From assembly GCA_965235115.1 (NCBI GenBank), contig OZ249436.1, positions 3,970,001 to 4,034,000 on the forward strand: a stretch of 64,000 bases of DNA, written 5' to 3'. This stretch comes from Laetmonice hystrix (taxonomy: Eukaryota). The number at the start of each line of letters is the position of its first letter. Positions within the stretch are counted from its first letter, which is position 1. A program made the translations under genes and the position numbers. Below, in pieces: positions 28,339 to 55,470 of this stretch. The notes under the pieces were generated by a model. The model was not told the DNA's origin. It saw only the letters and a program-made list of their open reading frames with translations, and did no database searches.

Positions 28339-29615
28339 CGTTTGTGAGGTCTGGGGCGGAGGTTTAGGATGAGGTTTGGGACTAGGAGGTTAGGGTTAGA
28401 TTATACAGGGATAGGATAAGTTTGTGAGGTCTGAGGACTAGGAGGTTAGGATTAGTTTGTGAGGTCTGGGGCGGAGGTTTAGGATGAGGTTTGGGACTAG
28501 GAGGTTAGGGTTAGATCATACAGGGATAGGATACGTTTGTGAGGTCTGGGGCGGAGGTTTAGGATTAGGTTTGGAACTAGGAGGTTAGGGTTAGATCATA
28601 CAGGGATAGGATACGTTTGTGAGGTCTGGGGCGGAGGTTTAGGATTAGGTTTGGAACTAGGAGGTTAGGGTTAGATCATACAGGGATAGGATAAGTTTGT
28701 GAGGTCTGGCGCGGAGGTTTAGGATGAGGTTTGGGACTAGGAGGTTAGGATTAATTTGTGAGGTCTGGGGCGGAGGTTTAGGATGAGGTTTGGGACTAGG
28801 AGGTTAGGGTTAGATCATACAGGGATAGGATAAGTTTGTGAGGTCTGGGGCGGAGGTTTAGGATTAGGTTTGGAACTAGGAGGTTAGGATTAGTTTGTGA
28901 GGCCTGGGGCGGAGGTTTAGGATGAGGTTTGGGACTATAGGAGGTTAGGGTTAGTTTGTGAGGTCTGGGGCGGAGGTTTAGGATTAGGTTTGGGACTAGG
29001 AGGTTAGGATTAGTTTGTGAGGTCTGGGGCGGAGGTTTAGGATTAGGTTTGGAACTAGGAGGTTATGATTAGTTTGTGAGGTTAGGGTTAGATCATACAG
29101 GGATAGGATAAGTTTGTGAGGTCTGAGGCGGAGGTTTAGGATTAAGTTTGGAACTAGGAGGTTAGGATTAGTTTGTGAGGTCTGGGGCGGAGGTTTAGGA
29201 TGAGGTTTGGGACTAGGAGGTTAGGGTTAGATCATACAGGGATAGGATAAGTTTGTGAGGTCTGAGGTGGAGGTTTAGGATTAAGTTTGGAACTAGGAGG
29301 TTAGGATTAGTTTGTGAGGTCTGGGGCGGAGGTTTAGGATTAGGTTTGGAACTAGGAGGTTATGATTAGTTTGTGAGGTTAGGGTTAGATCATACAGGGA
29401 TAGGATAAGTTTGTGAGGTCTGAGGCGGAGGTTTAGGATTAAGTTTGGAACTAGGAGGTTAGGATTAGTTTGTGAGGTCTGGGGCGGAGGTTTAGGATGA
29501 GGTTTGGGACTAGGAGGTTAGGGTTAGATCATACAGGGATAGGATAAGTTTGTGAGGTCTGGGGCGGAGGTTTGGGACTAGGAGGTCTGGGGCGGAGGTT
29601 CAGGATTAGGTTTGG
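28339..29615. repeat. Complex G-rich minisatellite with telomere-like GGTTAG motifs
   Basis: Modules gtttgtgaggtctggggcggaggtttaggatgaggtttgggactaggaggttagg and gttagatcatacagggataggataa in variable order. Confidence 0.92.
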
Positions 29616-32279: not shown

Positions 32280-35200
32280 ACAGAGAGAGACAGAGAGAGA
32301 GAGACAGAGAGAAAGAGAGAGGGGAGAGAGAAAGGGAGAGCGAGAGCGAGACAGAGACATAGAGAGAGATAGGCCTATAGAGATATATCGGGTGGATAAA
32401 AAAAAACGCCCCGAACTTTAAACTCCAATATTTCAAAAAGTATTGATTGTAATTCAACGAAATTTTTCTTACTATCACTTCATGATGTTGTCTCTTAGTT
32501 GTTAATGTTACAACTCAATAGCTTCGATAATATTTCCGTAGCGCTAAAAACAAAAATCATTGTACAAAAGCGCAATGCCGGGCTAAAGCGAGTGGTAGTC
32601 GCACCAGAGTCCCTGGCCTCACACTAGAGTAGGTGGTCAATCGGTCCCCCGTTTTCACTTCATACTGCTCTCAGTCTCTTTTTACATGCGCCAATGCACT
32701 TCCTGATCTCTGATAGGGAATTATCTTCCCATTATTGGGAAATAAGCAGCGTTCTGAACGTGTTGCTAAACGTGATAATGATACGATTTCCCTTAAACTT
32801 CTGGTTACAGTCATATCGTCCTAATGTTGCAGTTTCTCTGTAGGGTTTGGCAAATTAAACATCTGGGTTTCTCTAGAAGTACTAGGAATAGCACATAATT
32901 TATTATATCTAGTGGTTCACAACATTTTACATATTGTAAAACATGCAAAAACTAAATATTGAAAACTTTTGTACCCAAGGTACAATGTGGTGCATCAAAC
33001 AGGTGTCAAATTGGACACCTGGCAGCTGCATGATATTTGACCTAATTCCGGCATTGTGTTTTTAGACACTGATTTTTGTTTTTAGCGCCACGGGATTAAT
33101 ATCAAAGCTATTGAGCTGAAACTTTAACATACAAGAGATAATATCATGAAGTTATATTAAGAGAAATTTTATTGAATTATAATGCACAGTTATTGAAATA
33201 TTAAAGTTTAAAGTTCGGGGCGTTTTTTTTTATCCACCCGATATATATAGAGAGGGAGAGAGACAGAGAGAGGGAGAGAGGGAGAGAGAGAGGGGAGGGA
33301 GGGAGGGAGAGATAGAGAGACAGGCAGACAGACAGACAGACATGCAGACACAGAAACAGGGAAAGAGAGAAGCAGCGGATGCTTCTAATGCTGTTTTCGA
33401 TCCCGTGCATGGTTGGGATTGCCAAGTGGGCTCATTCAGGGTTTCGATCCCGTGCATGGTTGGGATTGCCAAGTGGGCTCATTCAGGCTTTCGACGCAGG
33501 GCAATGACAAACAAAAACATGAGGCAGCTAGACAATTTTAAAAAAAATTGTTATTAAAGGCGAAGCCATTATACTCTCCCCTAGCAAAATGGCCTTGCCC
33601 TCCAGGACTTTCTTTATAAGCAAATCACTGGGGGTGTAGGGGGGATGGAAAGAGCGAACATGGCCTATATGTAAGCCGATATGTATAAGATACCTTAATA
33701 TTGTATTCAATTTTCAAGGACGACCGTGGCAGTTGGCCCACCCAAGATATTATCAGGGTTCGACGACTGGAAATACCGCCGCAGAATAGTAGGTGGAACT
33801 TCAGATGCTGATGCATCATCAGAACATAGACCCAAGTTCTCCGCTAGAATCCTATACATGTATATCAGGTCAGGGTCCCGTCTCACTAAAGGCTGGTTAA
33901 TAACCAGATCGTTAAGTTAACATAGGAGTGAATGGAATGCTGCTGGTTACAGTAACCATCAGCCTTCCATTCACTCCTATGTTAACTTAACGATCTGGTT
34001 ATTAACCAGCCTTTAGTGAGACGGGCCCCAGGTAGCTGCTTTAAGATCCAATGTGTTAGGATCCACCATGTCTGATGTAACGTTCCAATGTGTTAAGTTC
34101 CACAATGTCTGATGTTAAGATCCAATGTGTTCAGTTCCACAATGTCTGATGTTAAGATCCAATGTGTTTGGAGAAACACAAAGTCTGATGTAACTTTTGG
34201 TGACCCGCTTCCTCTGCAGGTGTGGCGTCGGCTGCAGGGACAGCTAAAGGAGGCGACATCTCGCCTCATCCTCTGGGGTTCCTCTTTCAAACGGATCGAA
34301 GGTACGCCTATCACTCAACCTCCTATTGTATACAGACAACCTAGCTGCCTACAGCCCCCCCCCTACCATTATCAAATCCCTGGATCCCCCACTTGGTTAA
34401 AGAGGGGACTGAAAAATTCCATAATATTCGATTTTTTTTTATCATACATCGTCCGTTTCTACCATTTTATAGACACACATGTAGGACTAGTTTAACTTTC
34501 AAGGTGCCACAAGCTCGGCAAAGATGTCTTCAATCCCATTAGTAGCTAACAAGTCATCCGTACCCTATTGCTAACAAGTCATCCGTACCCTAGTATCTAA
34601 CAAGGCCAAGATCTGACATTAACCGTTTCTCATGCAGGGGTGTTTGGGAATGGTGTATCGTCGTACTTCCGGTTCCTGCGCTGGCTCTTCTTGCTTAACG
34701 TCATCATATTCACACTCCTGTTCCTGCTTGTCATCGTGCCTCAGGTGAGCTAACGTCATCATATTCACACTGACAGCTTGTCATCGTGCCTCAGGTGAGC
34801 TAACGTCATCATATTCACACTCCTGTTCCTGATTGTCATCGTCCCTCAGGTGAGCTAACGTCATCATATTCACACTCCTGTTCCTGATTGTCATCGTGCC
34901 TCAGGTGAGCTAGTCCCCTCGTCAACATCCCCACTAGAGGGTTAGCAATAGGCCCCCTGGATTCGGATTAACTTTTTTTACACACGCTGTACTGATAGAT
35001 TTAAAGTTTTTACCACCAAATTTCTGTCGTCAAAATGTTACAATGTTTGACCTTCAGGCGGCATTCACGGAGGTTTCTCTTCACAGCAGCCATGACAACT
35101 CCAGCCAACCCATTCCCTCCAACCTGACGTCACGGGAAACCTTCAATGGGACGTGTAGTGCCAAGTACAAGGCAGACATCGACTTCTCTTTTGTGCAGTT

Positions 35201-38200
35201 AAGCCTTGATTTCGCACAAGGCACTGTAAGTATCGGATAAAGCTATCTACGTGTTATACTTTGCGAGGTATAATATAGTGTGGCCTTGAATTATCGACTT
35301 ATATGCGGGCCAATACATACGTAGGTTCCCACTCCGTTTGGAGCGCATGGCTAGTAGTATATGGACATGGGCCTTAGTAGTAGGCCTATGTGGAGGGTGT
35401 TACCTGAGCCTCTGGAAATTACAAATTATAACTGGATGCTGTTCCTATATAGGGGTTTTATATTTAAAAGTCGAAGTTCGACAATGTTTTTATGCCAACC
35501 CGACATATGCGGGCCTACGTAGTGGCCCACTCCGGTTAAGGGACATCGCTAGTAGTCTATGGACATGGGCCTTGGTATACGGCGGCGTAACCTAAGTCTA
35601 TGGACATGGGCCTTGGTATACGGCGGCGTCTATGGACATGGGCCTTGGTATACGGCGGTGTAACCTAAGTCTATGGACATGGGCCTTGGTATACGGCGGA
35701 GTAACCTAAGTCTATGGACATGGGCCTTGGTATACGGCGGCGTAACCTAAGTATATGGACATGGGCCTTGGTATACGGCGGCGTAACCTAAGCTAGTCTA
35801 TGGACATGGGCCTTGGTATACGGCGGCGTAACCTAAGTATATGGACATGGGCCTTGGTATACGGCGGCGTAACCTAAGCTAGTCTATGGACATGGGCCTT
35901 GGTATACGGCGGCGTAACCTAAGTCTATGGACATGGGCCTTGGTATACGGCGGAGTAACCTAAGTATATGGACATGGGCCTTGGTATACGGCGGTGTAAC
36001 CTAAGTATATGGACATGGGCCTTGGTATACGGCGGCGTAACCTAAGTCTATGGACATGGACCTTGGTATACGGCGGCGTAACCTAAGTCTATGGACATGG
36101 ACCTTGGTATACGGCGGCGTAACCTAAGTCTATGGACATGAGCCTTGGTATACGGCGGTGTAACCTAAGTCTATGGACATGGGCCTTGGTATACGGCGGT
36201 GTAACCTAAGTATATGGACATGGGCCTTGGTATACGGCGGCGTAACCTAAGCCGAGAGGAAATTAAAACCGGATTCTTCTCTCAAAGTAAACGAAAAGGA
36301 CATCTGTGTTACCGTGGTCTCTCCTCTGCGCAGGGTTGGATGGAAAATACGGTGTTGTTCTACGGGGTGTTTACAAACGGTAGATTATCTCTGGATGGAT
36401 CGGGAAGTAAAGATGGTTATTCATACAACATGCCGCTAGCATACCTGACGGTGACGTTGGCCTACATGGCGATTTCCTTCTACCTCATCATCCAGCAGTA
36501 AGTTGTCGATAGCTTTCCAGGAGCGGAAAGGAAGCAGTCATTAAAAGTCAACGAAGTGTCCCTAAAGTCTGATATCTCAGCAATGATTTATGATATAATA
36601 ATTAAAAGTCTGATATCTCAGCAATGATTTATGATATGATAATTAAAAGTCTGATATCTCAGCAATGATTTATGATATAATAATTAAAAGTCTGATATCT
36701 CAGCAATGGTTTATGATATAATAATTAAAAGTCTGATATCTCAGCAATGATTTATGATATAATAATTAAAAGTCTGATATCTCAGCAATGGTTTATGATA
36801 TAATAATTAAAAGTCTGATATCTCAGCAATGATTTATGGTATAATACTTAAAAGTCTGATATCTCAGCAATGGTTTATGATATAATAATTAAAAGTCTGA
36901 TATCTCAGCAATGGTTTATGATATAATAATTAAAAGTCTGATATCTCAGCAATGGTTTATGATATAATAATTAAAAGTCTGATATCTCAGCAGTGATTTA
37001 TGATATAATAATTAAAAGTCTGATATCTCAGCAATGATTTATGATATAATAATTAAAAGAACCCACACACCTCCCGTGTGGTGATGCTGTTTTAGTCCCT
37101 TTAATAATCATTTACTTCACGTTTACCCCCAGAACTGATGTAAACTTTCGGGACGAGCTGGTCCACGGATTTAACAACCAGTCCAAGTCTCGGTGTTACT
37201 CGAACATGACGTTTGCCGGATGGGATTTCTCCTTGACCAATGTTCACACTGCACAGATCAGGCACAACAGTAAATACAACGAAATCAGGGTAAGGGACCG
37301 ATTCGTTTAGTCGGTGACGTCGCAGACTGCTCATCGCGCGTAGCCAGCGACGTCGCCGACAGGTCGCTGAGATCGCCCGGCGATGTCGGCCTAACGTCTT
37401 TAAACTATACCAAATCGTCGACACGGGCTCATATTCCCAACAACCTGTCAAATTTTTAGTCAGCGACACGCTAAGTAAGATTGGCTCCTAACAAAAATTT
37501 CAAGGATAACATTGGCATATAATTACATTAAGCTGTACGTTCGTTCTTCACTTTAATTCACTCCGTTTGTACACGTTTTGCAACAATGTATCTTGAAAGT
37601 TTTAGGGGCACCGTTGGCCAAGGGCGGGGGGGGGGGGATTGTAACATACCCACGAGGACATGTCAGGGTTAGAATAGTGCTAAGAATACTAATACATCTT
37701 GAGTTTATTCAAATTCTTCCAAATTCGTTGTGCTCTAGGAACGTTTGGCTGAGGAGCGGCTCCACGCCCGCCTCATCTCACGGACATTCAGACAGAAGTG
37801 TCGACTGTACGCTGCCCGACTTGTCATCAACGTGTTTGTCTTCGGGATTCTGGCCTGTGCTGCTTATATGATATACTACGCTACTCAGGAGTCAACAGAT
37901 GTAAGTCGGACAGAGCTCTCGGTTGTTTTGGGGGAAGAATATAAAAGTGTATATGTGAAAGGGAAGAAAAGAGAGAGAGAGAGCCAAGTCCTAACCTTGT
38001 TCGACCGTTGCAGTTCAAGGATCGTGAGGATTACTCGCGACAACCTAACCTTGTCGGACTGTTCATGTTGTAGTTCAAGGTTCGCGAGCATTACTCGCGA
38101 CAACCTAACCTTGTCCGACTGTTCATGTTGTAGTTCAAGGATCGCGAGGAGCACTCGCGACAACCTAACCTTGTCCGACTGTTCATGTTGTAGTTCAAGA

Positions 38201-41200
38201 ATCGCGAGGATTACTCGCGACAACCTAACCTTGTCCGACTGTTCATGTTGTAGTTCAAGGATCGTGAGGATTACTCGCGACAACCTAACCTTGTCCGACT
38301 GTTCATGTTGTAGTTCAAGGATCGTGAGGATTACTCGCGACAGCCTAACCTTGTTCGACTGTTCATGTTGTAGTTCAAGGATCGCGAGGATTACTCGCGA
38401 CAACCTAACCTTGTCCGACTGTTCATGTTGTAGTTCAAGGCTCGCGAGGATTACTCACGACAACCTAACCTTGTCCGACTGTTCATGTTGTAGTTCAAGG
38501 ATCGCGAGGATTACTCGCGACAACCTAACCTTGTCCGACTGTTCATGTTGTAGTTCAAGGATCGCGAGGATTACTCGCGACAACCTAACCTTGTCCGACT
38601 GTTCATGTTGTAGTTCAAGGATTGTGAGGATTACTCGCGACAACCTAACCTTGTCCGACTGTTCATGTTGTAGTTCAAGGATCGCGAGGATTACTCGCGA
38701 CAACCTAACCTTGTCCGACTGTTCATGTTGTAGTTCAAGGATTGTGAGGATTACTCGCGACAACCTAACCTTGTCCGAATGTTCATGTTGTAGTTCAAGG
38801 ATCGCGAGGATTACTCGCGACAACCTAACCTTGTCCGACTGTTCATGTTGTAGTTCAAGGATCGCGAGGATTACTCGCGACAACCTAACCTTGTCCGACT
38901 GTTCATGTTGTAGTTCAAGGATTGTGAGGATTACTCGCGACAACCTAACCTTGTCCGACTGTTCATGTTGTAGTTCAAGGATCGCGAGGATTACTCGCGA
39001 CAACCTAACCTTGTCCGACTGTTCATGTTGTAGTTCAAGGATCGCAAGGGTTACTCGCGACAACCTAACCTTGTCCGACTGTTCATGTTGTAGTTCAAGG
39101 ATCGCGAGGATTACTCGCGACAACCTAACCTTGTCCGACTGTTCATGTTGTAGTTCAAGGATCGCGAGGATTACTCGCGACAACCTAACCTTGTCCGACT
39201 GTTCATGGAGTATGTGCCTTCACTCGCCATCACCGTTCTCAATGTTGTCGTTCCTCTCTTGTTTATGAAAATTGTCATCGGTGAAGATTATCATCCGGAC
39301 TTCGAGGTTCGCATTACTTTAGCCAGGTAGTCATGTTTCTTTCTACATATAGGCATGTGCTTCTTGCAGAAAACGTTTACTTGTTCCCTCCTAATATATG
39401 TCAAAATGTATACAGTTACACAATCAGTCAAGATAACCCAAAGAAATCACTATCAAAGTTCTCGTAGTGTTGGATTGATTATCGTATAGTGAAGTCGAGT
39501 AGGCCCTAAATGTGCAGGAATTCCTTGCTTTGTAGGACCGTGTTTCTCCGCCAGGCGTCGCTAGCAGTACTTCTCGCGACGCTCTACTACCAGATTACGT
39601 GCGAGCCTCGTGATGACTGCCTGGTCGGACTACCCCCTGACTGTCCCCAATTACGGGTTAGAGTTTGTGTAAACATGGTCGGACTACCCCCTGACTGTCC
39701 CCAATTACGGGTTACAGTTTGTGTAAACATGGGCGGACAACCCCCTGACTGTCCCCAATTACGGGTTAGAGTTTGTGTAAACATGGGCGGACTACCCGCT
39801 GACTGTCTCCAATTACGGGTTAGAGTTTGTGTAAACATGGTCGGACTACCCCCTGACTGTCCCCAATTACGGGTTAGAGTTTGTGTAAACATGGGCGGAC
39901 TACCCCCTGACTGTCTCCAATTACGGGTTAGAGTTTGTGTAAACATAAAGAATAAGAATAAAGCGAAGCACTATTTCGACTTTGATTTTGACTCAATTGC
40001 ATTTATTGTTTCAGTGTTGGGAAACATACGTTGGGCAGAACTTGTACAGGCTGATCATCATGAATTTTGTTGTCAACGTTGCCACAGTTGTTGTCGTTGA
40101 TACTACTATACGGTTTGTAAAGCAGCACTTAATGCCAAAAAAGGCTTATCCATAAATTGCTTTTAATCATTTGAACTATAAGGATTTTTTTTTAAAAGGT
40201 TGAAAAGCAAAAAGTCTGAACGATAGAAAGAAGAATCGTTCTAAAAGGAAAAGGAAACACGTTTGAAAAAACATGACGCAACAGAGGCGTTGATGATAAC
40301 AAAATACAGCACGTTTTCACATTTTTAGAGTCATCGGTACAAAATGTTCACATCCGTTTCTGAAGATGCTTTGTGAAGAACAAGAATTCCCAATCCCAAA
40401 GAATGTTCTCGATCTCGTCTATGCTCAGACACTTTGTTGGTAAGTCTCACCATTATGTATGGCTCTATATTTCTAGTATAGCATAATGTTAGGTCTCACG
40501 TCCCATTATGTATGGCTCTATATTTCTAGTATAGCATAATGTTAGCTCTTACCATTATGTATGGCTCTATATTTCCAGTATAGCATAATGTTAGGTCTCA
40601 CCATTATGTATGGCTCTATATTTCCAGTATAGCATAATGTTAGGTCTCACGTACCATTATGTATGGCTCTATATTTCTAGTATAGCGTTATGTTAGGTCT
40701 CACCATTATATATGGCTCTATATTTCTAGTATAGCATAATGTTAGGTCTCACCATTATGTATGGCTCTATATTTCCAGTATAGCATAATGTTAGGTCTCA
40801 CCATTATGTATGGCTCTATATTTCTAGTATAGCATAATGTTAGGTCTCACGTACCATTATGTATGGCTCTATATTTCTAGTATAGCGTTATGTTAGGTCT
40901 CACCATTATATATGGCTCTATATTTCTAGTATAGCATAATGTTAGGTCTCACCATTATGTATGGCTCTATATTTCTAGTATAGCATAATGTTAGGTCTTA
41001 CCATTATGTATGGCTCTATATTTCTAGTATAGCATAATGTTAGGTCTCACGTCCCATTATGTATGGCTCTATATTTCTAGTATAGCATAATGTTAGGTCT
41101 CACCATTATGTATGGCTCTATATTTCTAGTATAGCATAATGTTAGGTCTTACCATTATGTATGGCTCTATATTTCTAGTATAGCATAATGTTAGGTCTCA

Positions 41201-44009
41201 CCATTATGTATGGCTCTATATTTCTAGTATAGCATAATGTTAGGTCTCACGTACCATTATGTATAGCTGTACATGTATATTTCTAGTATAGCATAATGTT
41301 AGGTCTCACGTACCATTATGTATGGCTCTATATTTCTAGTATAGCATAATGTTAGGTCTCACGTACCATTATGTATGGCTCTATATTTCTAGTATAGCAT
41401 AATGTTAGGTCTTACCATTATATGCCTCTACATTTCTAATGTAGTATGTGGCATTCCTTTCCAGGCTCGGTGCATACTTTGCACCGCTCGTTCCAGCTAT
41501 ATCTGTGGTTAGTCTATTTCTCCTCTTCTACTTGAAAAAGGTGAGTGTACTTAGAACGTTGAGACTTTCTGTGACTATACATCAGTGGGGGATCCTGGGG
41601 GCAGGGAGCTCGGGCCGCCCATAGATTCTTTTGATGAAGAAGCATTAGTAGGCCCTACAGTCATAATCAAATCATGCCAAGGGTAGCGATCGAGGTTAAA
41701 AAATTCACTGGGCCCCCCTTATCAAATTCCTGCATCCCCCTCTGTACATGTATGTAGGCTACATTTTAGTATAGGCCCGATCCAAACCAACCAACAAACC
41801 CCCAAGCGCTTTATTTATTCAATTAATTCGAAAAAATGATATATTTTGATCAATTAATAGTGCCTCGACCAATACTACTGCAGCTCATTTTTAACTTTCG
41901 CAGATTTTTAATACAGTAGCTAGGGTACTCAGTTGTAGGTGAAGATATGGAACCCGTAATGTACGCCCTGTTTCGACCTTGCCGTGTTGCAGGCCACGGT
42001 GTTGTACAACTACACGCCGTCCAAGCGTCCCTACCGGTCCTCCAGGTCACATGTTTTCTTCATGGTCGTCCTGCTGACTGCCTTCATTCTCTGCTGTCTA
42101 CCGCTCGGCTACTGCATCTGGAGGTAGGCGCCCTCTGACGGGAGGCGGCCGAAACACAGTCAGACCGATACCCGCCAGGGGTTCTATGGCGTCCATACTG
42201 TAATATTACCGATAGGCGGCGCTAGCGGTCTGACTGCGGGATTCTAAAAGGCTAAAGCAAACTAGAAATTGTTCAGTCCGAACAGGACGTCTCCCCTTTT
42301 TTAAAGTAATGACATCATATAATTTTTGAGAGGACTAATTAGTATGAAAGTAGTGTGTTGCAAAAGCAATGATATGGCTATGGCAGATTTTCTATGCGAA
42401 AGAAAAGATATAATAATAGTAGTAGCGGTATGTATGAAGGAATGTATGTATGTATGTATGTATGTATGTATGTATGTATGTATGTATGTATGTATGTATG
42501 TATGTATGTATGTGGGTAGGGGTGTGGGTGTGTGGGTGTGTGCGATGTGCCAGCTGTGGTAGGGAGTTGGTGGTTGTTGGTGGAGCGTGGAAGTGTTATG
42601 TAACTCAGTCAGGTGGCCAGGAGTATGGCCGGGGTTGCCGGGCACTGAGAACACTGAACGACCCCTGAACGAGCCTTGACTGCGCGGTTGTGGGATCTGC
42701 GGTGGTGGGGGACGGGCGGCCGGCCCACGATTTTTTCCCCCAAATTAGTTCCGGACCCCATTCTAGCTTTCATTGGCATACAGCCAATCAGTGAACGCCA
42801 GACTCTATCGCTCGCGATATGGACCGAACAGTGTCAGTGAATGTTTCTTATTGACACAGACATTAAGATCCACTGCTCAATTAGTGCCTATTTAACAATA
42901 ATTTTGGGCTAATATGAAAACCAACACTAGCCCTAGACCTAACCTTTACCCTAACCCAAACACACTGTCTCGCATCTCGCATGTCGTCGCCGGTATTCCA
43001 TAGCCATGTGTGTGATTGTTTCTGATTGGCTGTATGATCATGAGAATCCAGAACTAATGTGGGAAAAAAATTCGCAGCCGCCCGTGTAGGGGTTTGGGGG
43101 GGGGGGGGAGTTACCACGGCTGAGAAGGACGCCTGACTGGGGGTTGGCGGGGGTTGGCGGTGGTTGCCAGTGACAACGGCAACAGGTCACAGGCCGTGGG
43201 AGCGGGCCGCTGGGGAGTTGTTTACCGTTACGCGACCGTTTACGGAATGGTCCACTTCTAGGCCTAATAAGTCGGAAACTATTAACTGTAGAGAAAAACA
43301 CTTTGTAGCGGTTGTAGGCAAAGACCTGGAGATTCTTCTCCCCCAAGTTTCATAAAGATACGGTCAGGGGTTTGGGAGATATAAAAGGCTTCTCTAAGGT
43401 TGGCACGGTACTGAGGTCAAAGGTCATGATGTGCTAAAAATAGCAAAATCCCGAGAAAATATCCACAGTTGTCTTTTCCCCAAATTAGGACTTTCTAGCC
43501 CCGGTAGTTTTTGGCCTGATGTCAAGTAAGCGCCCAACCACTTCAAAAAATGTTGAAGGTCACACAGAGGTCATTTGGGGTCACACGAACGTGTCCTCCG
43601 GGAAATCTAAATTTGGCACATAGATGACCCTGCTGACCAAATTTGATGTTATTCCACCCAGTATTTTCCGAGTTATGGCTTTGGCAAAAAAATGGCACGT
43701 GCCATTTTTTTTAGATCAGCCGCCATCTTGAAAGTTCTAGGTCAACCAAACTGGTTTTCGAACTTGTCCAAGCCCCGGATGAAAGAAGGCCGACATACCA
43801 ATTTTGGGTCGATTCAGGCTATTTTTCTCGCGTTATCGTGATCACAGCACAAGTTGGCACATTCGTGCCACGGAAGAGGTCAAAGGTCAAATGGCACTAT
43901 AATTAGAAACAAAGATTTTTCAGAAGGTTCTGTCGGGGCATTTCAAATTTGATAAGTCCCTCTCTAACAGTGGCCGAGTTATTCCAAAAAGAAGGAAATA
44001 AAAGAAACA

Positions 44010-44072
<63 letters not shown>

Positions 44073-46030
44073 CGGTCAGAAACAGCGTGCAAAACAAAAC
44101 GTCTCCCCCAGCTGGGGGGAGACGTAATAATGAAAAAAGAAAGGGAATTATCTAACATCTAAATATCTCGAACATTCTGCGGTTTCTGAAAGTCATTGTA
44201 AAAAGATCATAACACAGTCTTGTAAGAAAACGGCAAAGGGTTTCAAGATTAACCTAAGAACTTTCAGAAAGGACGAGGTGGGGTTTTAACGATGTTTTTA
44301 GCAAAATCTTTTCCTTGAACTTCACAGAATTGTTAAAACCTTGGTAAACGTTTGTTTTTATATGGACTCCACGTTTAAGCCTCATTATCCGCTTTAAGAC
44401 TAATGTAATTTTAGCATGTCAGCTTTCAAAGGCAAAGTGTCCAACCATCCAGATTTCGTCGGAATTTTCCCGGTTTTATTTGAAAAGTCCCGAATCCCGG
44501 CGCAACCTCGTTCGGGATAGCAAAAATCCCAATTTTGAAGATCTGCTCCCACAAGCAACGAGCCAAGAAAGATATTTTTGTCAAAAGAGGACAGGGGGAG
44601 AGGGGGGTTATCAAAAAAGTACTCTTTGTACGCTTGTGAAAATGTTGAAAATGTTGAGCCACCCCTAACTGTTATCGCCTAGAACGTACCTCTCTGCCCG
44701 CCTGACTGAAATGACTGTTGTTCAGGGTTGTACCATCACGCGGCTGTGGACCTTTCCGACAAGATGACCACGTTTATGACGTCATCACAGAGGCCGTCCA
44801 ATCATTGCCCAGATTCGTCCAGTACATCTTAACGTTGATGACGTCAACAGCATCCCTCGTGGTTCTCTTGGTTTCACTCATGTATGTTTTGTCCATCTCC
44901 TCCTTTAATTCCAAAATCTATAAATAGCACATGTCACGATCACATGAATCTTACATTATTAGGATCAAGGAAACGAGAGTGCTCCTTTAAGAGGGAGGCT
45001 TACAATAACTCCAGTTACCTGGCTTAGACTGACTGACGAGGCCTAATATAAAGGGTTATGAGCTAAACCAGTAAAGAGTAGGCACGAACGACCAAGAGAT
45101 GAGGTAGATTTTGAAATCCCATTTGAAATGCCTGCATTTGGAATCGCGTGTAGGTATATATTTTTTTTATTAACATAACTTTAACTTTAACTTTAACATA
45201 ACTTTTACCAGTATGAAGGGACTCGGAGATAAGTACAGTCCGGTCTTCCGTCCCTTCTGATCTGGACTCAACTCGAGTTCCTTACATGTCGTGTTATGGT
45301 ATTAATGATTACACGACTCTTATTTGCAAACCTAGCTCTTTTTTTTATCCCGGTCAGGGTTAAATATCATCGTAAATAATTAATACTACTCGTTGGTTCA
45401 CACGAGTGATGGAGTGAGGTATTTTGCAGCCTCCTCGTGTACTACTTCCGGTCGACGTCCAGAGGTCGCCAGGGTGTGATCGCACTCCTCAGGGAGCAGA
45501 TAGCCTTGGTAAGTCGATAATACCTTGTCATACTGTAGCAAAGGTCTGAACAGACTGTGTTGGTGGTACGCCTGAACCTGAGGACATCTATATATATCGA
45601 CCCCCCCCCCCCCCGCCCGCCCCCCGGCAAGCGAAGTTTTCAAAATGTCCGGTTAGACCCTCACCTGTATGCTATTTATAGCTCCTCTCTTGCGCCATAT
45701 ATGCTCGAAATATCGCTTTTTTTGTCTACCACACTAAGATCTATGACATGAATCTGATCTAAAAATCGATAACTTCGTCCCCACGTGACCATTGACCGGT
45801 CACTCAGTATACAAGCTATCCATTATCGCCCTCAGGAGTCACGTGACAAGCAGTTCCTCCGGGCCCGCCTCAACGAACTGACGGTAGAGGGCGCTGCAGG
45901 GGACCAGGTGGTGCCAGAGTCGCCAGTCGCGGCTGGCCACGTGACAGTGGACACCCCTCCTGGACACCATCAACTGTTTAATGTTCACAGAGCGCCCATG
46001 GCTGATACCGAAAGTTACGCTTCAAACTGA
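32099..46030 (+). CDS. TMC7: Transmembrane channel-like protein (TMC7-like), multi-exon; 5' end uncertain
   Basis: Exons: 32099(ATG; or acceptor 32094)-32196 (less certain), 33719-33788, 34220-34301, 34638-34744, 35058-35225, 36334-36497, 37133-37289, 37739-37900, 39154-39326, 39536-39656, 40015-40112, 40329-40439, 41465-41540, 41993-42123, 44726-44881, 45430-45508, 45836-46030 (TGA). TMC hallmarks: [113 protein letters not shown]. The family is firm; the paralogue name is tentative. Confidence 0.9.
32221..32370. repeat. (GA)n microsatellite
   Basis: Pure then degenerate GA run that resumes at ~33250-33350, beyond the inserted MITE. Confidence 0.9.
32388..33241. mobile_element. Tc1/mariner-like MITE with ~190-bp TIRs
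   Basis: TA|TCGGGTGGATAAAAAAAAACGCCCCGAACTTTAAAC ... GTTTAAAGTTCGGGGCGTTTTTTTTATCCACCCGA|TA; inverted similarity extends inward (gcgctaaaaacaaaaatca / tgatttttgtttttagcgc). Confidence 0.85.
33395..33487. repeat. 47-bp tandem duplication
   Basis: tttcgatcccgtgcatggttgggattgccaagtgggctcattcagg x2. Confidence 0.9.
33874..34028. mobile_element. Near-perfect 155-bp hairpin MITE (PIF/Harbinger-like, CAG TSD)
   Basis: CAG|GGTCCCGTCTCACTAAAGGCTGGTTAATAACCAGATCG...CGATCTGGTTATTAACCAGCCTTTAGTGAGACGGGCCC|CAG; the arms pair almost to the centre. Confidence 0.85.
34042..34195. repeat. ~37-bp degenerate tandem repeat (~4 copies) just upstream of a TMC acceptor
   Basis: gttaagatccaatgtgttcagttccacaatgtctgat and variants. 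Confidence 0.8.
34696..34911 (+). repeat. 55-bp repeat x4 duplicating a TMC exon 3' end plus donor
   Basis: aacgtcatcatattcacactcctgttcctgcttgtcatcgtgcctcag|gtgagct; donors after 34744, 34794, 34849 and 34904. Confidence 0.92.
35553..36251. repeat. 41-bp minisatellite (~17 copies), TMC intron
   Basis: Unit agtctatggacatgggccttggtatacggcggcgtaaccta. Confidence 0.95.
36563..37058. repeat. 41-bp AT-rich minisatellite (~12 copies), TMC intron
   Basis: Unit aaaagtctgatatctcagcaatgatttatgatataataatt. Confidence 0.95.
37991..39207 (+). repeat. 60-bp minisatellite (~20 copies) made of a TMC acceptor plus exon start
   Basis: Unit ttgtag|ttcaaggatcgcgaggattactcgcgacaacctaaccttgtccgactgttcatg; the last copy runs into the unique exon (FKDREDYSRQPNLVRLFM-EYVPSLAIT). 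Confidence 0.95.
39623..39946 (+). repeat. 54-bp minisatellite x6 made of a TMC exon 3' end plus donor
   Basis: Unit ggtcggactaccccctgactgtccccaattacgg|gttagagtttgtgtaaacat. Confidence 0.95.
40443..41421. repeat. 49/53-bp minisatellite (~19-20 copies) filling almost a whole TMC intron
   Basis: Unit ccattatgtatggctctatatttctagtatagcataatgttaggtctca(cgta); the intron is 40440-41464. Confidence 0.95.
41583..41744. mobile_element. CAG...CTG MITE with 5-bp TSD
   Basis: CAGTGGGGGATCCTGG / CCTGCATCCCCCTCTG, flanked by TACAT on both sides. Confidence 0.65.
42260..44128 (-). mobile_element. Helentron-associated non-autonomous element (HINE/DINE-1-like) with nested insertions
   Basis: One end has the stem-loop acgtctccccc-agct-ggggggagacgt (44099-44125) next to a (GAAA)n microsatellite. 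The other end has the matching subterminal acgtctcccc (42287-42296), a short hairpin tgttc-agtcc-gaaca and aactagaaa. Both flanks are A/T-rich. Confidence 0.7.
42443..42512. repeat. (ATGT)n microsatellite
   Basis: Pure tetranucleotide run. Confidence 0.95.
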
Positions 46031-46783: not shown

Positions 46784-48649
46784 ACGAAATAAACCGTTAT
46801 TTTTAAACCTTCTCATCGGTCAAAGTTTTTGTCTTCATGTCCTCTTCTATCGTTTACTAGTAAACCTCCCTTTTTAAAATTTAACCATATTTTTAATTGA
46901 AAGAAATTTAGGACAGTATCATAGGCCTATCATGGTCCTAAGATCTAGATGTTTCCCCCTCGACTTAAGCACATATATGATATCCCACATCCCCGCTGCA
47001 GCCTCTGTCCTCGGTCTCAGCTCGAGAAAGGTGATAGACAATCGGCCAGGTGTCGGTCAATGCCAATGTCTAGACCGGTTCAGTAGAGCATGCAAGGTGT
47101 CGCACGCTCCAATGAACAGGGTTCTGTTAAAGTGGGTCGCGACAGACGCGGGACTCTCAGAGAACGTTCCTGTGAACAGATCTAGGTCAACTCGTCTCTC
47201 TCCCACCAACCACCGCTATATGTTAATGTTAGTCTGAATGTCTCCAACAATTCCCTTGTTTATACTACGAACAACATCGCACACTGTGTCATTGAACTCA
47301 CTTTGAAAGGACAACTCTCCGCAGCGCGCCGTCAACATTGGTTGAGCCAGGAAAAAATACCACTCTCCCTATACTGAGTTATCAGTGGTGAGGTAAGTTT
47401 TGCCAAGCTCATATCATTCACACACTTACTATACGATATCACTGCATGTATCTACTTATATTGAGGCACATTATACGTGGTTTGTGTTCAAACCACAAGC
47501 TTAAAGTCCGGATCTTCATTGTGTAGCCTAGATACACACTTCTATTGCCGCCAGGGTCCTCAGATAGTGCCTGTGAGACAAATCCCTTACAGACAACATC
47601 TAGTGCTGAAAGTGGACGTGATCAACAGATTATACTACACCAAACCTGACAGGCTTGGACAAGGCCTGGTACGGGGTGTATATCACTGAACACGTCGACA
47701 ATCATCTCATAACTAATCATGATAGACATGCACTGATTATATAGGTATATAATTATGTAGACCCACGTATTGACGTATTAAGGTACACTACTGAACAATT
47801 GCATGAAGGCAGTCAGTCTTGATGTATTCGTGACAATATCTGACAGCTTTCCTCTTCATCATTATAGCGCTATCTTTAGCAGGTTGATTAATTTCACAGC
47901 GAGCAAGTAAATAAGGTTGATGCTTCCAGACAAAATGAATTAACATGGACTTAATGAGGCCCCATATAAAGGTCACGAACATTGGCTAGTAAACTATAGG
48001 CCTTTATTATAGCGAAACACTTGAAGTCGGGCTGATGGCAGACTTTCGGTGGTCGTATAGTGTACAGACAATAATGAGGTAAACCGTCTGAAGGTCGGTG
48101 GCCCCTATTCATACAGGTTGACCTACGATAGAGTTCTTAAAGGGGATTTCCCTACTTGCATTAGTTGCCCTTGGTTCGAGTTAATGGGGTCTGCTAGGCC
48201 AATGGTGATAGGTTTTATATCGAAGTCGATCCTCTATACACACGTAGCCAGGCCAGGGCAGATACAGGGGATGGCCATCTGTTCGATCTCATGGGGGGGG
48301 GGGGGGCGCATGTATAACAGCTTTTATTTCCTCCACCCCTTTTTTCAAAACTCTGATCTACCTGCGGTGTATAGGCTTCATACCTATATGCTACATGCTG
48401 GCTGCCATGTATGGGGTATTATTAGGCCTATAGGAATAGTGAACGTTTAGGATGCGTTGGCGGTGAGATAGGGCACGACGGCCTATTTACAGGTCCTGTT
48501 TTATATGAGGATTGTGTGATATTTACCCGTGATATTTATTATTAGATTTCTATTATATCGCACCCGTTTCTATCTCCTGCAGCACGACAGTGCCCGTTGT
48601 GAGTGACGGATAGCGTTTCCCGGGCCTGGCCGAGGCTGCAGACGACAGG

Positions 48650-51600
48650 ATGGTCCAGGGAACAATACCACTTCTCGTCTGCTTTATTGAATGCGTCCTT
48701 TTTGGCGGGACGATGTACGGGTGGCCATCACTGGTTTATGTCCTAAAACAAGAAGGAGTCTATCACCATCTGTGCCCGCTAGAGTTTCCTCCAAACCAGA
48801 CAGGCGATCGAGTTGTTGCCAACGCCAGCGTCCGGGGCCGGCCGACACTCATTCAGACGTCCGAGTGGCCCGTTGTCACGTCGTCGCCCATGGTTACAAC
48901 GTCTCACGACACCCGGCGCGAGGGCCGACATGACCACCGCTATGACCTGCCGTGTGAGCCTCAGGATCACCACCTGGCCTTGACCTTCATTCTCTGTGTC
49001 CTCATGCAGGGCGTGTCATCGTTTCCACTGGGACGACTGTTTGACTGGGCCGGCCTTCGATCTACCCGTCTCCTGGGCTGGTACGTGAAACCTCCAGGCC
49101 GACATCTCAAACAGACAACAGGCCCGGAAGGACCTGAAGGGGGTGGGAGATATTTTCATCAGCCAGAAATTCCGAAATCAAACTCCTTTTTTCACTCTGA
49201 AAATGTCCCAAAGACGAAATAGGCCTACATGGGCACCCCTAGGGGTGGGGGGGGGGGGGGGGGCAAAGAGACAGTTGTCCCCCTAGGGAATACTAATGAT
49301 AGGCCTATTTGGCACCCCGCGTTTCTGTTGCCTTCTTAAATTCGCAATTTCGTCAAGGACAGAGAGGGCAGCCTATAAGCTGAACACGGAAGAGGAGAAT
49401 CGAATACAAAATGTAGATAGGTCGCTGGCAGTAATAGGCCTACTTCTGGTTCCTATGAATGTGTCTTCGTGTAATAATCATAATCATGTACATGTAGTTT
49501 ATTGAAACACTTCATGTCCATTTTCAGTTTCGTGGGGTTTGCTGGATACAGCATGCTCGCATTCACACACGAAGGAGGTAATGTGAATTTAACTATCCAT
49601 TAATACAATTAAAAATTCGAAATTAATGCACTTAATGGGAAAACTACAATTAAAGTGGCATCCCAAATTCCGCAAATATTCGCCCTTGGACCCCAGTGGC
49701 ACCATGTTAACATTTCAGGTTCGAGCGATAAGCGAAAGTATTTTAAAAATGGAATGGAAAAATATGTCCCTGCTGGCTGGTGACCACGGCGTCATATCCG
49801 CGAGCTCCCAGGCCGCACTGGCTTCAGAAAATAGCAGTCGGACCGAACGGTAGCTCAGGGCCCTAACATAACATTTTTTGGAGGTTCAATTAGTTATTAT
49901 TACAGATAGACATTTCAATTTGTTTAAAAAATTCTTTCGCTTATCGCTCGGAACCTGAGATTTTAACAAGGTTTCACTGGGGTCAAAGGTAAGAGTATTT
50001 GAAGAATGTGGGGTGCTACTTTAAGTGAAAACATGATGGGTTTCATGTAACGATGGCCTACTTCTTTCGTGACATCCTGTCTGGTTGCTTAGAAGGGAGG
50101 CAGTTTGGGGGAGGATGCAGTTTCATCGTGATCGATTCAGTTAATTTTTCCCAGAAACTCACGCGATAACATTCTCTACAAACAATTACGTATCCTGAAG
50201 TAGGCCTATAGTCTACGCTTGGCATAATGTTTTTAAATTGAGATCCGCAAAAGGTCAGTTATTGCCCCTATGTATTTTATGGATAAACTTGTACATGTAC
50301 TCGACCACCAGTCCTCCTGTCCGCCAGCTGGATATACGGACTGGACACAAATATATCTGCGGGCTGATGCCACCAGATGTCAGCACCTGACGTGCCTATA
50401 GGGCATAGGCCTATAGGCGGGTCCCCTGACTCCCTCGCCTGGCAGAGCGGCATTTAGAGCAGGGGGGCAGGGTATGGTCAAGGTTTCTAGGTCACAATGC
50501 CACAGTCGTCCAATTAGCGCCGATGATCGTTTTCTATCACGGTCACCGTGTTCGTGTAACCCAGATAGGCGTTTGTGTCCAGACCCTTTTTTTGAGCGAC
50601 GAGCGGCTTCTAGCGGAAAAAAGGGTACGGTGATCGAGACTAATGTATTATAGTGCCAGCCCTCCATACTAATGAAAGACATTGGTTGTTCATCATTATA
50701 GTTATATTGTTCTATTTTGATTTGTTTAATATCCTAGAAGCATCATGGCTGATCTATGTGGCGAGTTCGTTGTGTGGGATTTCCATGACAATCATCGTAA
50801 TGACCAACTGCTATGTAAGTAGTCTCTACATAAAAGTCTAAGGTGGAGTAATACGACCTGGCACTTCCTTCCCAATAAAGATTTATATCTATTATTTTCA
50901 CTGAAAGGCCTTTTTACGAACTGGGCCCATATAGGTCTATATCAAAACATATATCTCACAAATAGGCCGTTTTGATAAACGAGTTCTGCAGACTGTACGT
51001 TGGTTTTACTACCCCGTACCCCATTTTCCTACCCCGATTTGGTGGGAAGTTACCCTGAGGGGGTAATCCCAGTGTTTAGCTGGCCGTTTGTATTATGACG
51101 CGGCGGTGTGTGTAAATTTGTCTCCAGGTGGCGCAGTTGGCGGGCAGTCGGACAGCCACTGTGGTAGCGTTGTATAACGGTGCTGTTATGGCCTCTCCTG
51201 CCGTACTCCTCATCATTAAAGTACGTCCTTTTATACATCCTCAAACTCAACAAGGGTCGCTCCAGTGGAGGCCTAGTAGTTTCTCTTCGTTTAGACCGAC
51301 TGACAGGCATATAAAAGCTGACATTTACACAGATACAATTGGGACCATATCTCTAATAGATACCGTTCCTTTATTGATAAAGCCTGAATTTCTTCCTTTT
51401 TTACGGGGTGGGTCGAAACGGGAAGGGATTACATGTAAGGGGAACCATTCGATAAAAGTGTTATAAAAGTTGATATAAGCTTAGATATAAATTTATGTTG
51501 ATACTTTTATGCGTAGCCCAGATATATAGTTACGGTGCGATACTTGACATTGTATTGTGTAGGACCCTCTTAACATGCTTCCATTAAATTACTATCCATT

Positions 51601-54600
51601 AAATTTATCTCTTTCACAACATTAATTTCCCGCGAGAAAAGATCTATACAAATTAGCATTTTTTCCTAGTTGGCGTCGGCTTATTTCATGCAGAATTGAA
51701 GGACCCTATTAAATTTAATGAGATGAAATTCTTGTAGAGTCTAGAGTAGACTGATTAAGTTACCTGTGGATTAAGTTACTGTGGATTATCAGAGTCAGGA
51801 GGATAGGTTTTGTCAGACATTGTATTCGGGGTCTAGTAGGTCTATAATCTAAGAGAGGCAGTCGGTAATCTTACCCGATCATCCCCCAATCACGTGACAG
51901 TTGCTGTACGACGCGGGCGTCTCCAGGACGACGACTATGACGATATTCTCCTTCACGTGGATCGTAGTCGTCATCAACACGTGCGTCCTCCTTCCTAAAT
52001 ACAAGATTCCGGTCCTTGAGGCTGACGGCCACCCCCTCCGCCGGGACGGCCACCCCCTCCGCCGGGACAGCCACCCCCTCCGCCAGGACCAGGGACCCTT
52101 CACGTCCTCCCCACCGGCCGCCTCCCCGGACTCCGCCACCGAACTCCGCTACATCCCCACCAACACGGCCATCGTCGACGCACACAGTACCTACATCCCT
52201 GAGTACGAGTTGCTGTGGTCGCGAGGCCTGCTGCAGGAGTCGGAACCTGTCGACCTGGAGCTGTCGGAGGTCGGAGGTAGCTCAGGTCAGTCAGACCCAC
52301 CGCCAACGTCAGCTAACACCACCGGTGACAGCCGGAAACACTGGGCGACGTACATCCGGTCATCAGTTTTCTGGCTCTTCCTGTACTGGTTCGCCGCCCT
52401 CCACCTGCGCGCGCAGGTCTTTATCAGTACCTTTAACACGTGGGTATACACCTTGGTGAAAGGAGACGCACAGCAGGGTGAGTTAAACAGGGTGTGCTTC
52501 ACTGGGGATAAAATATGGGTGAGTTAAACAGGGTGTGCTTCACTGGGGATGGAATATGGGTGAGTTAAACAGGGCCTGCTTCACTGGGGATGGAATATGG
52601 GTGAGTTAAACAGGGTCTGCTTCACTGGGGATAAAATATGGGTGAGTTAAACAGGGTCTGCTTCACTGGGGATGGAATATGGGTGAGTTAAACAGGGTCT
52701 GCTTCACTGGGGATGGAATATGGGTGAGTTAAACAGGGTGTGCTTCACTGGGGATAAAATATGGGTGAGTTAAACAGGGTGTGCTTCACTGGGGATGGAA
52801 TATGGGTGAGTTAAACAGGGCCTGCTTCACTGGGGATGGAATGTGGGTGAGTTAAACAGGGTCTGCTTCACTGGGGATAAAATATGGGTGAGTTAAACAG
52901 GGTCTGCTTCACTGGGGATGGAATATGGGTGAGTTAAACAGGGTCTGCTTCACTGGGGATGGAATATGGGTGAGTTAAACAGGGTGTGCTTCACTGGGGA
53001 TGGAATATGGGTGAGTTAAACAGGGCCTGCTTCACTGGGGATGGAATATGGGTGAGTTAAACAGGGTCTGCTTCACTGGGGATAAAATATGGGTGAGTTA
53101 AACAGGGTCTGCTTCACTGGGGATAAAATATGGGTGAGTTAAACAGGGTCTGCTTCACTGGGGATGGAATATGGGTGAGTTAAACAGGGTCTGCTTCACT
53201 GGGGATGGAATATGGGTGAGTTAAACAGGGTCTGCTTCACTGGGGATGGAATATGGGTGAGTTAAACAGGGTCTGCTTCACTGGGGATGGAATATGGGTG
53301 AGTTAAACAGGGCCTGCTTCACTGGGGATAAGGTGACGTAACGTGACGTACCATTTTCCGTGACGTAATATGACGTGACGTGACGACAAATTATACCGCA
53401 ACATGTTTCAGTGAGCCATTTCACCAACGTGTACGGTTTCATCAGTGTATCCAGTATCGTCATCTCGCCAGTGTCTGGTATCATTATGGACATCCGCCGC
53501 AAACGGCTCAAAGGTCAGCAACCAAGTGGGCCTAGATACTGGCGTGAAATGACAAAAGGAAGCAAGTCCAACTTTCATCAAAATCGACTTAAGTGTAAAT
53601 TTCGATTCAGGGAAGTAAGTCCTATCTATCAATGGGTGTATTTCTGCTAAACATCCTTCTATAAAGCTATCAGTCACATGACAGAAGGAAGCATGCCCAT
53701 CCAACTGCACTGCATTTTTCGAAACTTGAACTTTTGGACTTGCTTCCTTTTGCCATTTCACGGCAGTATATTGTCTATCGGCCTACAGGCATACCTACAC
53801 ACATAACCAGTGGCATATTTAGAAAATCCAGAAGAAAATGAAGGGGGGCGGGGGTATCACTGGGCAATGTAGGAGCCTATAATTATATGTACATCTGTTC
53901 ATATCCCGGAGACATGTGTTTGGTTTATTTTAGCGAACATTTAGAGTCACAATTATCGTAGCTAGAATCCGATTTCTTTGGATGACACAGAAATGTTCTC
54001 CAATGTTTTGCAGTAAATGAACGTTATGGCTTGCTTGGTGCGATGGCAGCAGCGCCATCTTTAACCATCACCACGTCGGTTGCCATTCTGGTCAGCATGT
54101 TGACCTTGCTCAAGGTCGAATGGTGTATCTACGTCACAATCGCAGCGTTCACTATTCTTATGGTCTTCCTCTACCCAACCGGTATAGCATTTATTGGACA
54201 AACGTAAGTAGGTCGTTGTCCAACGCACAGCGAGCTGTGCAACCTGGAATATTTAGTTTCCCCACAATAAAGGTATCTTAGCTGCGTTTGGCACAAGGTC
54301 CCCTATTCCTCACTTTTAGACCCCGACCCTGCTGATTGATGTTTAAGTTGTCCGTCCTTCCTCGTTTTTAATATCTGTTGACAATCATTTAGAGCCTTCC
54401 CGGTGAGACTTGGGCCTATGTAGGATTTTATTTTTCGTACTAGATACTTTTATGCGCACGTAGTGGGATGTCTATAGGCCTACCTTTCGTTTCTCCCGCC
54501 AGGTGGCCCTCATGTCACTATGGAACCCTGTTCGGTGCGACTGTCACTGTGCTGGGGGTCGTGTCTTTCCTTCAGTATCCCTTTGTGATCTGGGCAGGTT

Positions 54601-55257
54601 CGACGGCCAGAGGAGACCTTCCAGTAAGTAACTATCATTGCCCATGGCCCGGGTTTTAACTTTTCGTTCATAATCTCCATAATCAAGGGTTGAGTCTCAA
54701 ATGGCGCACATTTTGAGAACAAAAGAACGAAAGACTGGGCCCAGGCTTTAACCCTGAATACGTCGAAATAATGAATAGGGCTAAAATGTATAATTATAAC
54801 CAGCTATAATCACGACAAGCCGTATAGAAGCAAAACTTTACTTACAATCCTCTCCTTTCTGAAAAAAAAAGAATTGTCATTAGGGCTTAATCGGGTATTG
54901 ACGATGGGATAATAATGAACGAATGTTTACATAATCCTGAAGAGTTTATAACAGTGTCGTAAAAATGTTCTCCGGAGACAGCTCTCGCTTGTGTTGTCCT
55001 GTATATCGTGTTTGTATCAGTCCTGCGTGGTGATCCTCCGAGGAGTCGTAGATCTCTGGCCGTCTGGCCAGGTGTGTCCCAAGATAATAACATAATCAGA
55101 TTTATCTTTCTTACAGATGAATACGGTGCTACTCTTTACGGCCGTCCTTACCTTTCTTCATCCGGGAAACATCTTCTTTCAGTATCGGAAACGGAAAAGT
55201 CAAAACGGAAATGCCTCATTGTCCGACAGCGCCCTCTCTCGGAGAGCTCAGGAGTGA
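48650..55257 (+). CDS. SLC43A3: SLC43-family MFS transporter (SLC43A3 / equilibrative nucleobase transporter 1-like), multi-exon
   Basis: Exons: 48650-49080, 49528-49577, 50738-50814, 51128-51220, 51901-52477, 53412-53513, 54014-54203, 54503-54623, 55117-55257 (TGA); all phases join. Motifs: ECVLFGGTMYGWPSLVYVLKQEGVYHHLC, FPLGRLFDWAGLRSTRL, ALYNGAVMASPAVLLIIK, SPVSGIIMD, WPSCHYGTLFG, FLQYP, FLHP. An in-frame stop lies upstream of the ATG. A likely non-coding first exon ends at 47392 (gag|gtaagt), with an acceptor at 48582. Confidence 0.85.
49654..50020. mobile_element. Kolobok-type MITE in an SLC43 intron
   Basis: TTAA|AGTGGCATCCCA...TGGGGTGCTACT|TTAA; ~90-bp imperfect TIRs (cgagcgataagcgaaag / ctttcgcttatcgctcg). 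Confidence 0.82.
52476..53330 (+). repeat. 41-bp minisatellite (~21 copies), each containing the SLC43 donor G|GTGAGT
   Basis: Unit gg|gtgagttaaacagggtctgcttcactggggatggaatat, starting exactly at the exon end (52477). Confidence 0.95.
53539..53766. mobile_element. TA-flanked MITE (Tc1/mariner-like)
   Basis: TA|CTGGCGTGAAATGACAAAAGGAAGCAAGTCCAA ... TTGGACTTGCTTCCTTTTGCCATTTCACGGCAG|TA. Confidence 0.8.
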
Positions 55258-55470
55258 GGGACGCTCCGCTCTAGACTGACGTACGTCACGTCATGCAGTA
55301 CCGTACATCCCTTCAGCATTTATTCACGTATAAATAATCTACGAACGGTATCAACGCCGTTTAATAGAGGATTTGTTGATTACAATCGTCTTCGGAGAAC
55401 AGTATTGATACAGGCGTATTATGCATATCTATAATAGTTACAACGTTTACAACGTTATAACCAATTCTCG

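Follow-up and report, generated by a model that had tools for sequence, protein, structure and literature searches.

The window analysed here is a stretch of 64,000 nucleotides from Laetmonice hystrix (GenBank assembly GCA_965235115.1, contig OZ249436.1, positions 3,970,001 to 4,034,000 of the forward strand), and all positions below are counted from its first letter. It harbors a TMC7-like gene on the forward strand (34220..46030) that is modelled with 15 coding exons, its 5′ end lying outside the model. With the exon-nearest splice site taken at every repeat array of the gene, the model is open over 659 amino acids up to a natural stop. The membership in the TMC family is illustrated by Pfam family PF07810, which scores above its cut-off on two consecutive exons: the exon 40015..40113 (+), which opens with the TMC signature CWETYVGQ, matches positions 1-30 (E 1.9e-9) and the exon after it covers positions 35-68, so that the domain starts at CWET. 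A tblastn comparison with four homologues returned matches to the exons in order. The gene product is 42.5% identical to Lingula TMC7 over 630 amino acids, and nemertean, annelid, and mussel proteins come next, which makes a spiralian invertebrate the probable host. By name, three of the six homologues that were looked up are TMC7 proteins and none bears another TMC number. A word-indexed protein search with one exon gave 13 candidates, none of them significant.

The CWET motif opens TM6, and the loop preceding it is extracellular (PMC12250529). The preliminary description of this DNA had taken CWET as the start of the TMC domain after an extracellular loop, which is borne out by the Pfam match and by the topology described for the family; the array discussed below sits in this TM5-TM6 loop, directly before the TMC signature (PMC12250529). 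The cysteine of the motif, C667 in worm TMC-1, is described as forming a disulfide, and its loss blocks surface delivery (PMC12250529). Worm C667 aligns with the CWET cysteine of the TMC7-like gene. The TMC7-like proteins of Lingula (XP_013388941.1), Lineus (XP_064645080.1), and Dimorphilus (CAD5114164.1) share with the gene the exon order, the CWET signature, the CGPF loop and, when the first donor of the array is used, a TM5-TM6 loop with four cysteines.

Structure and reading frame of the 54-bp donor array

The exon 39154..39326 (+, 173 nt) is followed by an intron of 209 nt and by the exon 39536..39656 (+, 121 nt), which encodes TM5 and the loop and ends at donor 1. Across this exon end, Tandem Repeats Finder reports a minisatellite at 39622..39946 (+) with a period of 54, 6.0 copies and 95% matches. 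The unit is composed of the 35 terminal exon nucleotides and the 19 initial intron nucleotides, so that it straddles the exon–intron boundary in head-to-tail copies and reiterates the splice signal: GT is kept in all six copies and an identical 9-mer in five. The six donors 54 nt apart that had been described are confirmed after 39656, 39710, 39764, 39818, 39872, and 39926, and the anatomy of the array agrees with the minisatellite origin that had been proposed for them. Donor 1 (after 39656, +) and donors 3-6 (39762..39932, +) read CGG/GTTAGA, the slash marking the splice point. Donor 2 (39708..39716, +) reads CGG/GTTACA and is weakened by the loss of the G at +5 (G>C), which lowers its matrix score to −2.1 versus 2.6 for the other five array donors. 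The introns left by donors 3-6 are predicted to measure 250, 196, 142, and 88 nt, respectively. Downstream of the array lies the unique remainder of the ancestral intron with the acceptor TTTCAG (39947..40014, +), and we infer that this intron measured 88 nt before the expansion.

All six donors would join to 40015 in frame and without a stop, as the preliminary description had it; in the 15-exon model the products are open to the natural stop and range from 659 to 749 amino acids, with 4 to 14 cysteines in the loop. The units of 18 amino acids would indeed add residues in frame, with the amendment that each extra unit brings two cysteines. The 54-nt periodicity of the recurring unit likewise holds, but the copies are not identical. 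They carry five distinct substitutions, all missense (R>T, V>G, L>Q, P>A, and P>L), so only copies 1 and 5 equal the reference unit. Each copy additionally contains two more GT sites 6 and 12 nt past the donor (e.g. 39662-39668), namely AGA/GTTTGT and TGT/GTAAAC, which likewise keep the frame and whose use would lengthen the protein by two or four residues.

The in-frame, stop-free state of the array is not surprising and not far from chance. In a null model comprising every possible 20-100 nt duplication across any of the 14 donors of the gene, the duplication is in frame and stop-free with a probability of 0.136 over all donors and of 0.328 at the 39656 donor. Splice sites are reiterated by four arrays in the window, and the probability that at least one of them is open is 0.44 when the donor rate is applied to all four. 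Arrays occupy 4027 of the 9831 modelled intron bases (41%). When a unit is placed randomly in sequence that is non-exonic or at a boundary, it spans a splice site 17-24% of the time, so the three of seven minisatellites in modelled introns that do so (p about 0.15) are not clearly in excess.

Ancestral donor, copy divergence, and sequencing runs

The exon 39536-39656, aligned from 39537, is 69% identical to residues 354-395 of a Dimorphilus protein (P0027), which continues from 395 straight into CWES at 396. The loop, taken as the stretch between the TM5 anchor and the signature, was measured in 21 of 24 homologues of at least 300 amino acids, three being unmeasurable; the top hit (P0001, an unrelated repetitive sequence) and 61 hits below 300 amino acids were excluded before counting. 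With donor 1, the loop has 36 amino acids and four cysteines. The six best-scoring homologues have 30-38 amino acids and four cysteines, and they belong to a group of ten of the 21 with loops of 30-39 amino acids and four cysteines. Ten others have loops of 46-69 amino acids with two cysteines (four in one of them), and one further homologue has a loop of ten residues. In C. elegans TMC-1, about 210 residues are unaligned in the loop region (455 to 667). None of the 21 measurable homologues, none of which is closer than 44% identity, has more than the four loop cysteines obtained with donor 1, and no tandem cysteine unit was seen in their printed loops. Since donor 1 yields the homologous loop and the Dimorphilus match reaches it, these alignments establish donor 1, at the level of sequence, as the original site. 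On the same comparison the TM5-TM6 loop tolerates changes in length, which counts in favor of a ladder of isoforms, and it is not known to carry added cysteines.

The 54-bp copies mutate as neutral DNA, although the comparison has few changes to draw on and would lose power if the loop were relaxed. Five missense changes out of five have a probability of 0.22 under neutrality, of 0.067 at a dN/dS of 0.5, and of 0.006 at 0.2. No constraint on the reading frame, as a selected coding repeat would show, was found among the copies. As a control, the 19 upstream copies of a 60-bp array in the same gene, which lie outside any full protein, show 11 missense changes among 15. In the true exons, both allele differences found in the sequenced runs are synonymous (2/2).

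The window is covered by four sequencing runs of one sample. In three of them, collapsed contigs of the 54-bp repeat reach about 5-6 times the flank depth, and the fourth has no coverage there. The depth in these three runs indicates that the array is real, and an assembly artefact as its source is ruled out by the raw data. The contigs of two runs contain 31-mers that are absent from the window, which hint that the other allele differs in the array, and the commonest unit type stands at 5-6 times the flank depth versus about three copies in the window. Contig depth is a poor measure of copy number, however, and incomplete assembly of the array would produce the same picture. The 60-bp array is entered from two different flanks in the runs, representing two haplotypes, and the depth suggests that both carry this array. 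None of the four runs contains splice joints, and their contigs cross intron sequence. One run (X4, share 0.25) had been considered as possible RNA, which was rejected as its two contigs cross intron sequence as well.

Other arrays at splice sites

The TMC7-like gene contains two further junction arrays. The first (34696..34912, +) repeats the strong donor CAG/GTGAGC four times in units of 55 bp (one copy of 50), and its three extra donors all lead to a stop at amino acid 65, just past the first donor. The second (38007..39207, +) consists of 20 units of 60 bp, each built from 6 intron bases and the first 54 exon bases, and thereby presents 20 tandem acceptors. All 19 upstream acceptors lead to a stop at amino acid 299, and the last acceptor alone is productive. 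This last acceptor has an upstream pyrimidine stretch and a CTAAC branch-like word that derive from the exon-repeat sequence. The intron-nearest sites would leave introns of 153 nt at the 55-mer and of 113 nt at the 60-mer. Since all 22 extra sites of the two arrays give premature stops in an otherwise intact frame, the gene needs the exon-nearest choice. For the frame to have stayed intact, the exon-nearest site must be chosen with sufficient frequency, with which leakage is compatible. At the 55-mer and the 60-mer, substantial mis-splicing could go unseen because products with a stop are degraded, but not at the 54-mer.

A 41-bp array of 21 copies (52476-53329) lies at a donor of the neighboring membrane-protein gene, which spans about 48600-55260 and which we take to be SLC43-like; a Pfam search with two pieces of it returned no family. 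The array recreates G/GTGAGT 21 times, and its 20 extra donors all lead to a frameshift or a stop. A 49-bp array of 20 copies at 40444-41438 starts five bases past the donor at 40439, and its copies yield only a weak look-alike donor, AG/GTCTCA.

Splice-site choice and relation to known repeats

By its structure, the 54-bp array is a boundary-spanning minisatellite of the type known from the amphioxus “mirages” and from human F7 and CBS. Mirages are described for Adh3, troponin C, the globins BflGb6 and BflGb9, and PGBD5 (PMC3087553, PMC3902484). As in the TMC7-like gene, they arise by tandem duplication of a boundary, affect both 5′ and 3′ boundaries and keep the splice signals in many copies; their units measure 10-160 bp, and their copy number differs between haplotypes (PMC3087553, PMC3902484). 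Their splicing is reported to be regular and undisturbed (PMC3087553, PMC3902484). The TMC7-like gene differs in having three arrays, one of which is wholly in frame, stop-free, and located in a length-tolerant loop.

Human donor-spanning VNTRs are described in F7 intron 7 (37 bp, 5-9 copies), CBS intron 13, 6-16 intron 2, lamin B2, and PDGF, and in these the authentic donor in the first unit is likewise followed by sequence-identical pseudo-donors (PMC1557585). F7 resembles the 54-bp array in its copy number and differs in contributing 4 exon bases per unit instead of 35 (PMC1557585). Of its 5-9 identical donors, only the first is reported to be used; 50 extra clones per construct gave no other product, and pseudo-sites that are in frame were used no more than others (PMC1557585). 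The same source cites lamin B2 and PDGF as using the first donor only, and CBS and 6-16 as using two further sites (PMC1557585). In contrast to these VNTRs, the sites of the TMC7-like array are all in frame and its introns are short enough for intron definition. For two identical donors, human data describe exclusive use of the upstream one beside introns of 365 nt, and a preference for the downstream one, through intron definition, in introns under 250 nt (PMC9225289). These precedents are all mammalian or amphioxus.

On these grounds, the first donor probably dominates in the TMC7-like gene, with copies 2-6 as neutral decoys that allow at most minor leakage. The 54 bp across the exon–intron junction would have been tandemly duplicated into a young, unstable minisatellite, which expanded to six copies in the sequenced haplotype. 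The spliceosome would mostly pick the exon-nearest donor, by exon definition or 5′-to-3′ priority, so that copies 2-6 would be removed with the intron to give the normal loop with four cysteines. Any use of donors 3-6 may then be minor leakage, a by-product rather than a selected repertoire. Against this dominance count the weakness of donor 1, the 209-nt upstream intron, the 250-88 nt introns of donors 3-6, the tolerance of the loop to changes in length, and the use of two extra sites in CBS and 6-16 (PMC1557585). In a leave-one-out matrix with 13 training sites, the lowest score among the 14 donors of the gene falls to donor 1 (2.6, in a range of 2.6-8.7). The matrix is noisy and ranked ACA/GTTTGT above the true donor, and it was therefore applied only to the weakness of donor 1 and to donor 2. 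RNA folding of exon and intron found no structure beyond chance that would hide the later donors (z-score −0.18).

The isoform ladder that had originally been proposed keeps its minisatellite origin, its in-frame joins, and its position in the loop, but a functional or selected ladder finds no support. A selected ladder is opposed by the neutral-like drift of the copies, by the four-cysteine loops of the homologues that correspond to donor 1, and by the null products of the extra sites in the sister arrays; the published cases, in which splicing is confined to the first donor or to the leading two or three, also speak against a ladder. Still, a ladder may be a real output in which several donors are used appreciably (more than 10% together) and zero to five extra units of 18 residues and two cysteines are added, as intron definition pulls toward short introns and exon definition toward donor 1. 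Owing to the damage in donor 2, the +1 rung would be faint. In favor of the ladder, each of the six joins is open, the later donors are not hidden by structure, the loop varies in length across the family, and two extra sites are used in CBS and 6-16 (PMC1557585). Against it stand the missense-only drift among the copies, the 0/21 homologues with more than four loop cysteines, the 22/22 null sister sites, and the in-frame pseudo-sites that are not favored in F7 (PMC1557585). Extra cysteines near the CWET cysteine could moreover disturb a disulfide like the one on which the trafficking of worm TMC-1 depends (PMC12250529). The weak donor, the short introns, and intron definition nevertheless keep such a ladder in play as an unlikely outcome. 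Splice products that stay in frame escape nonsense-mediated decay, and those of donors 3-6 would do so. Far less likely is an abundant, allele-dependent ladder in which zero to five or more two-cysteine units beside the CWET cysteine change the trafficking or gating of the channel. Similarly improbable is what this abundance would make of the array, a mirage that turns intron into coding loop with the gene's two other junction arrays ignored.

The same considerations leave a slim chance that the intron-nearest donor (after 39926) is the main site, which would give mostly one long form with 90 more residues and ten more cysteines. This agrees with the rule of intron-centric proximity for short introns (PMC9225289), and the last copy keeps the ancestral 88-nt intron length and its downstream context. 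Applied strongly in the animal, however, the rule would also choose the last donor of the 55-mer and the first acceptor of the 60-mer, both of which generate stops, and thus render the gene null twice. No coding constraint is seen in the copies, and the exon would measure 391 nt versus 76-195 nt for the modelled exons. Lowest in probability stands a dispensable, decaying gene whose junction arrays accumulate regardless of their effect on splicing. The clustering of three junction arrays in a single gene and the 3/7 minisatellites that span a splice site fit such a decay, but the latter are not clearly above the random rate. The 659 codons are without a lesion, the exonic allele differences are synonymous (2/2), and the neighboring gene carries a 21-donor array as well.

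With first-donor dominance as the preferred reading, the array is, as it stands, a further example of a tolerated repeat type. It also offers a natural test of splice-site choice, as stop-generating donor and acceptor arrays occur together with an in-frame donor array in one short-intron invertebrate gene. The in-frame array would expose leakage that is unmasked by nonsense-mediated decay and separate exon-nearest from intron-nearest choice. If long forms were abundant, they would represent a route by which repeats lengthen a protein loop, which could explain the range of loop lengths in TMC proteins. A literature search, which was loose and does not show absence from print, found no published TMC gene with such a repeat. 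UPF3A, NOC4L, and PLIN5 are reportedly further human VNTR cases, on which a separate search returned nothing relevant.

The window holds other repeats as well. An open exon of 588 codons at 6855-8618 encodes a cysteine-rich, coiled-coil-like repeat of 7, 14, and 42 residues, an older and true coding repeat with about 65-80% matches (Tandem Repeats Finder). A C-terminal piece of the same gene at 16567-16851 presumably resembles NuMA. A complex array with periods of 59, 80, and 139 bp occupies 28340-29610, and 131 copies of a 32-bp unit run from 59802 off the window end at 64000; both arrays show a strong strand skew and TTAGG-like words.
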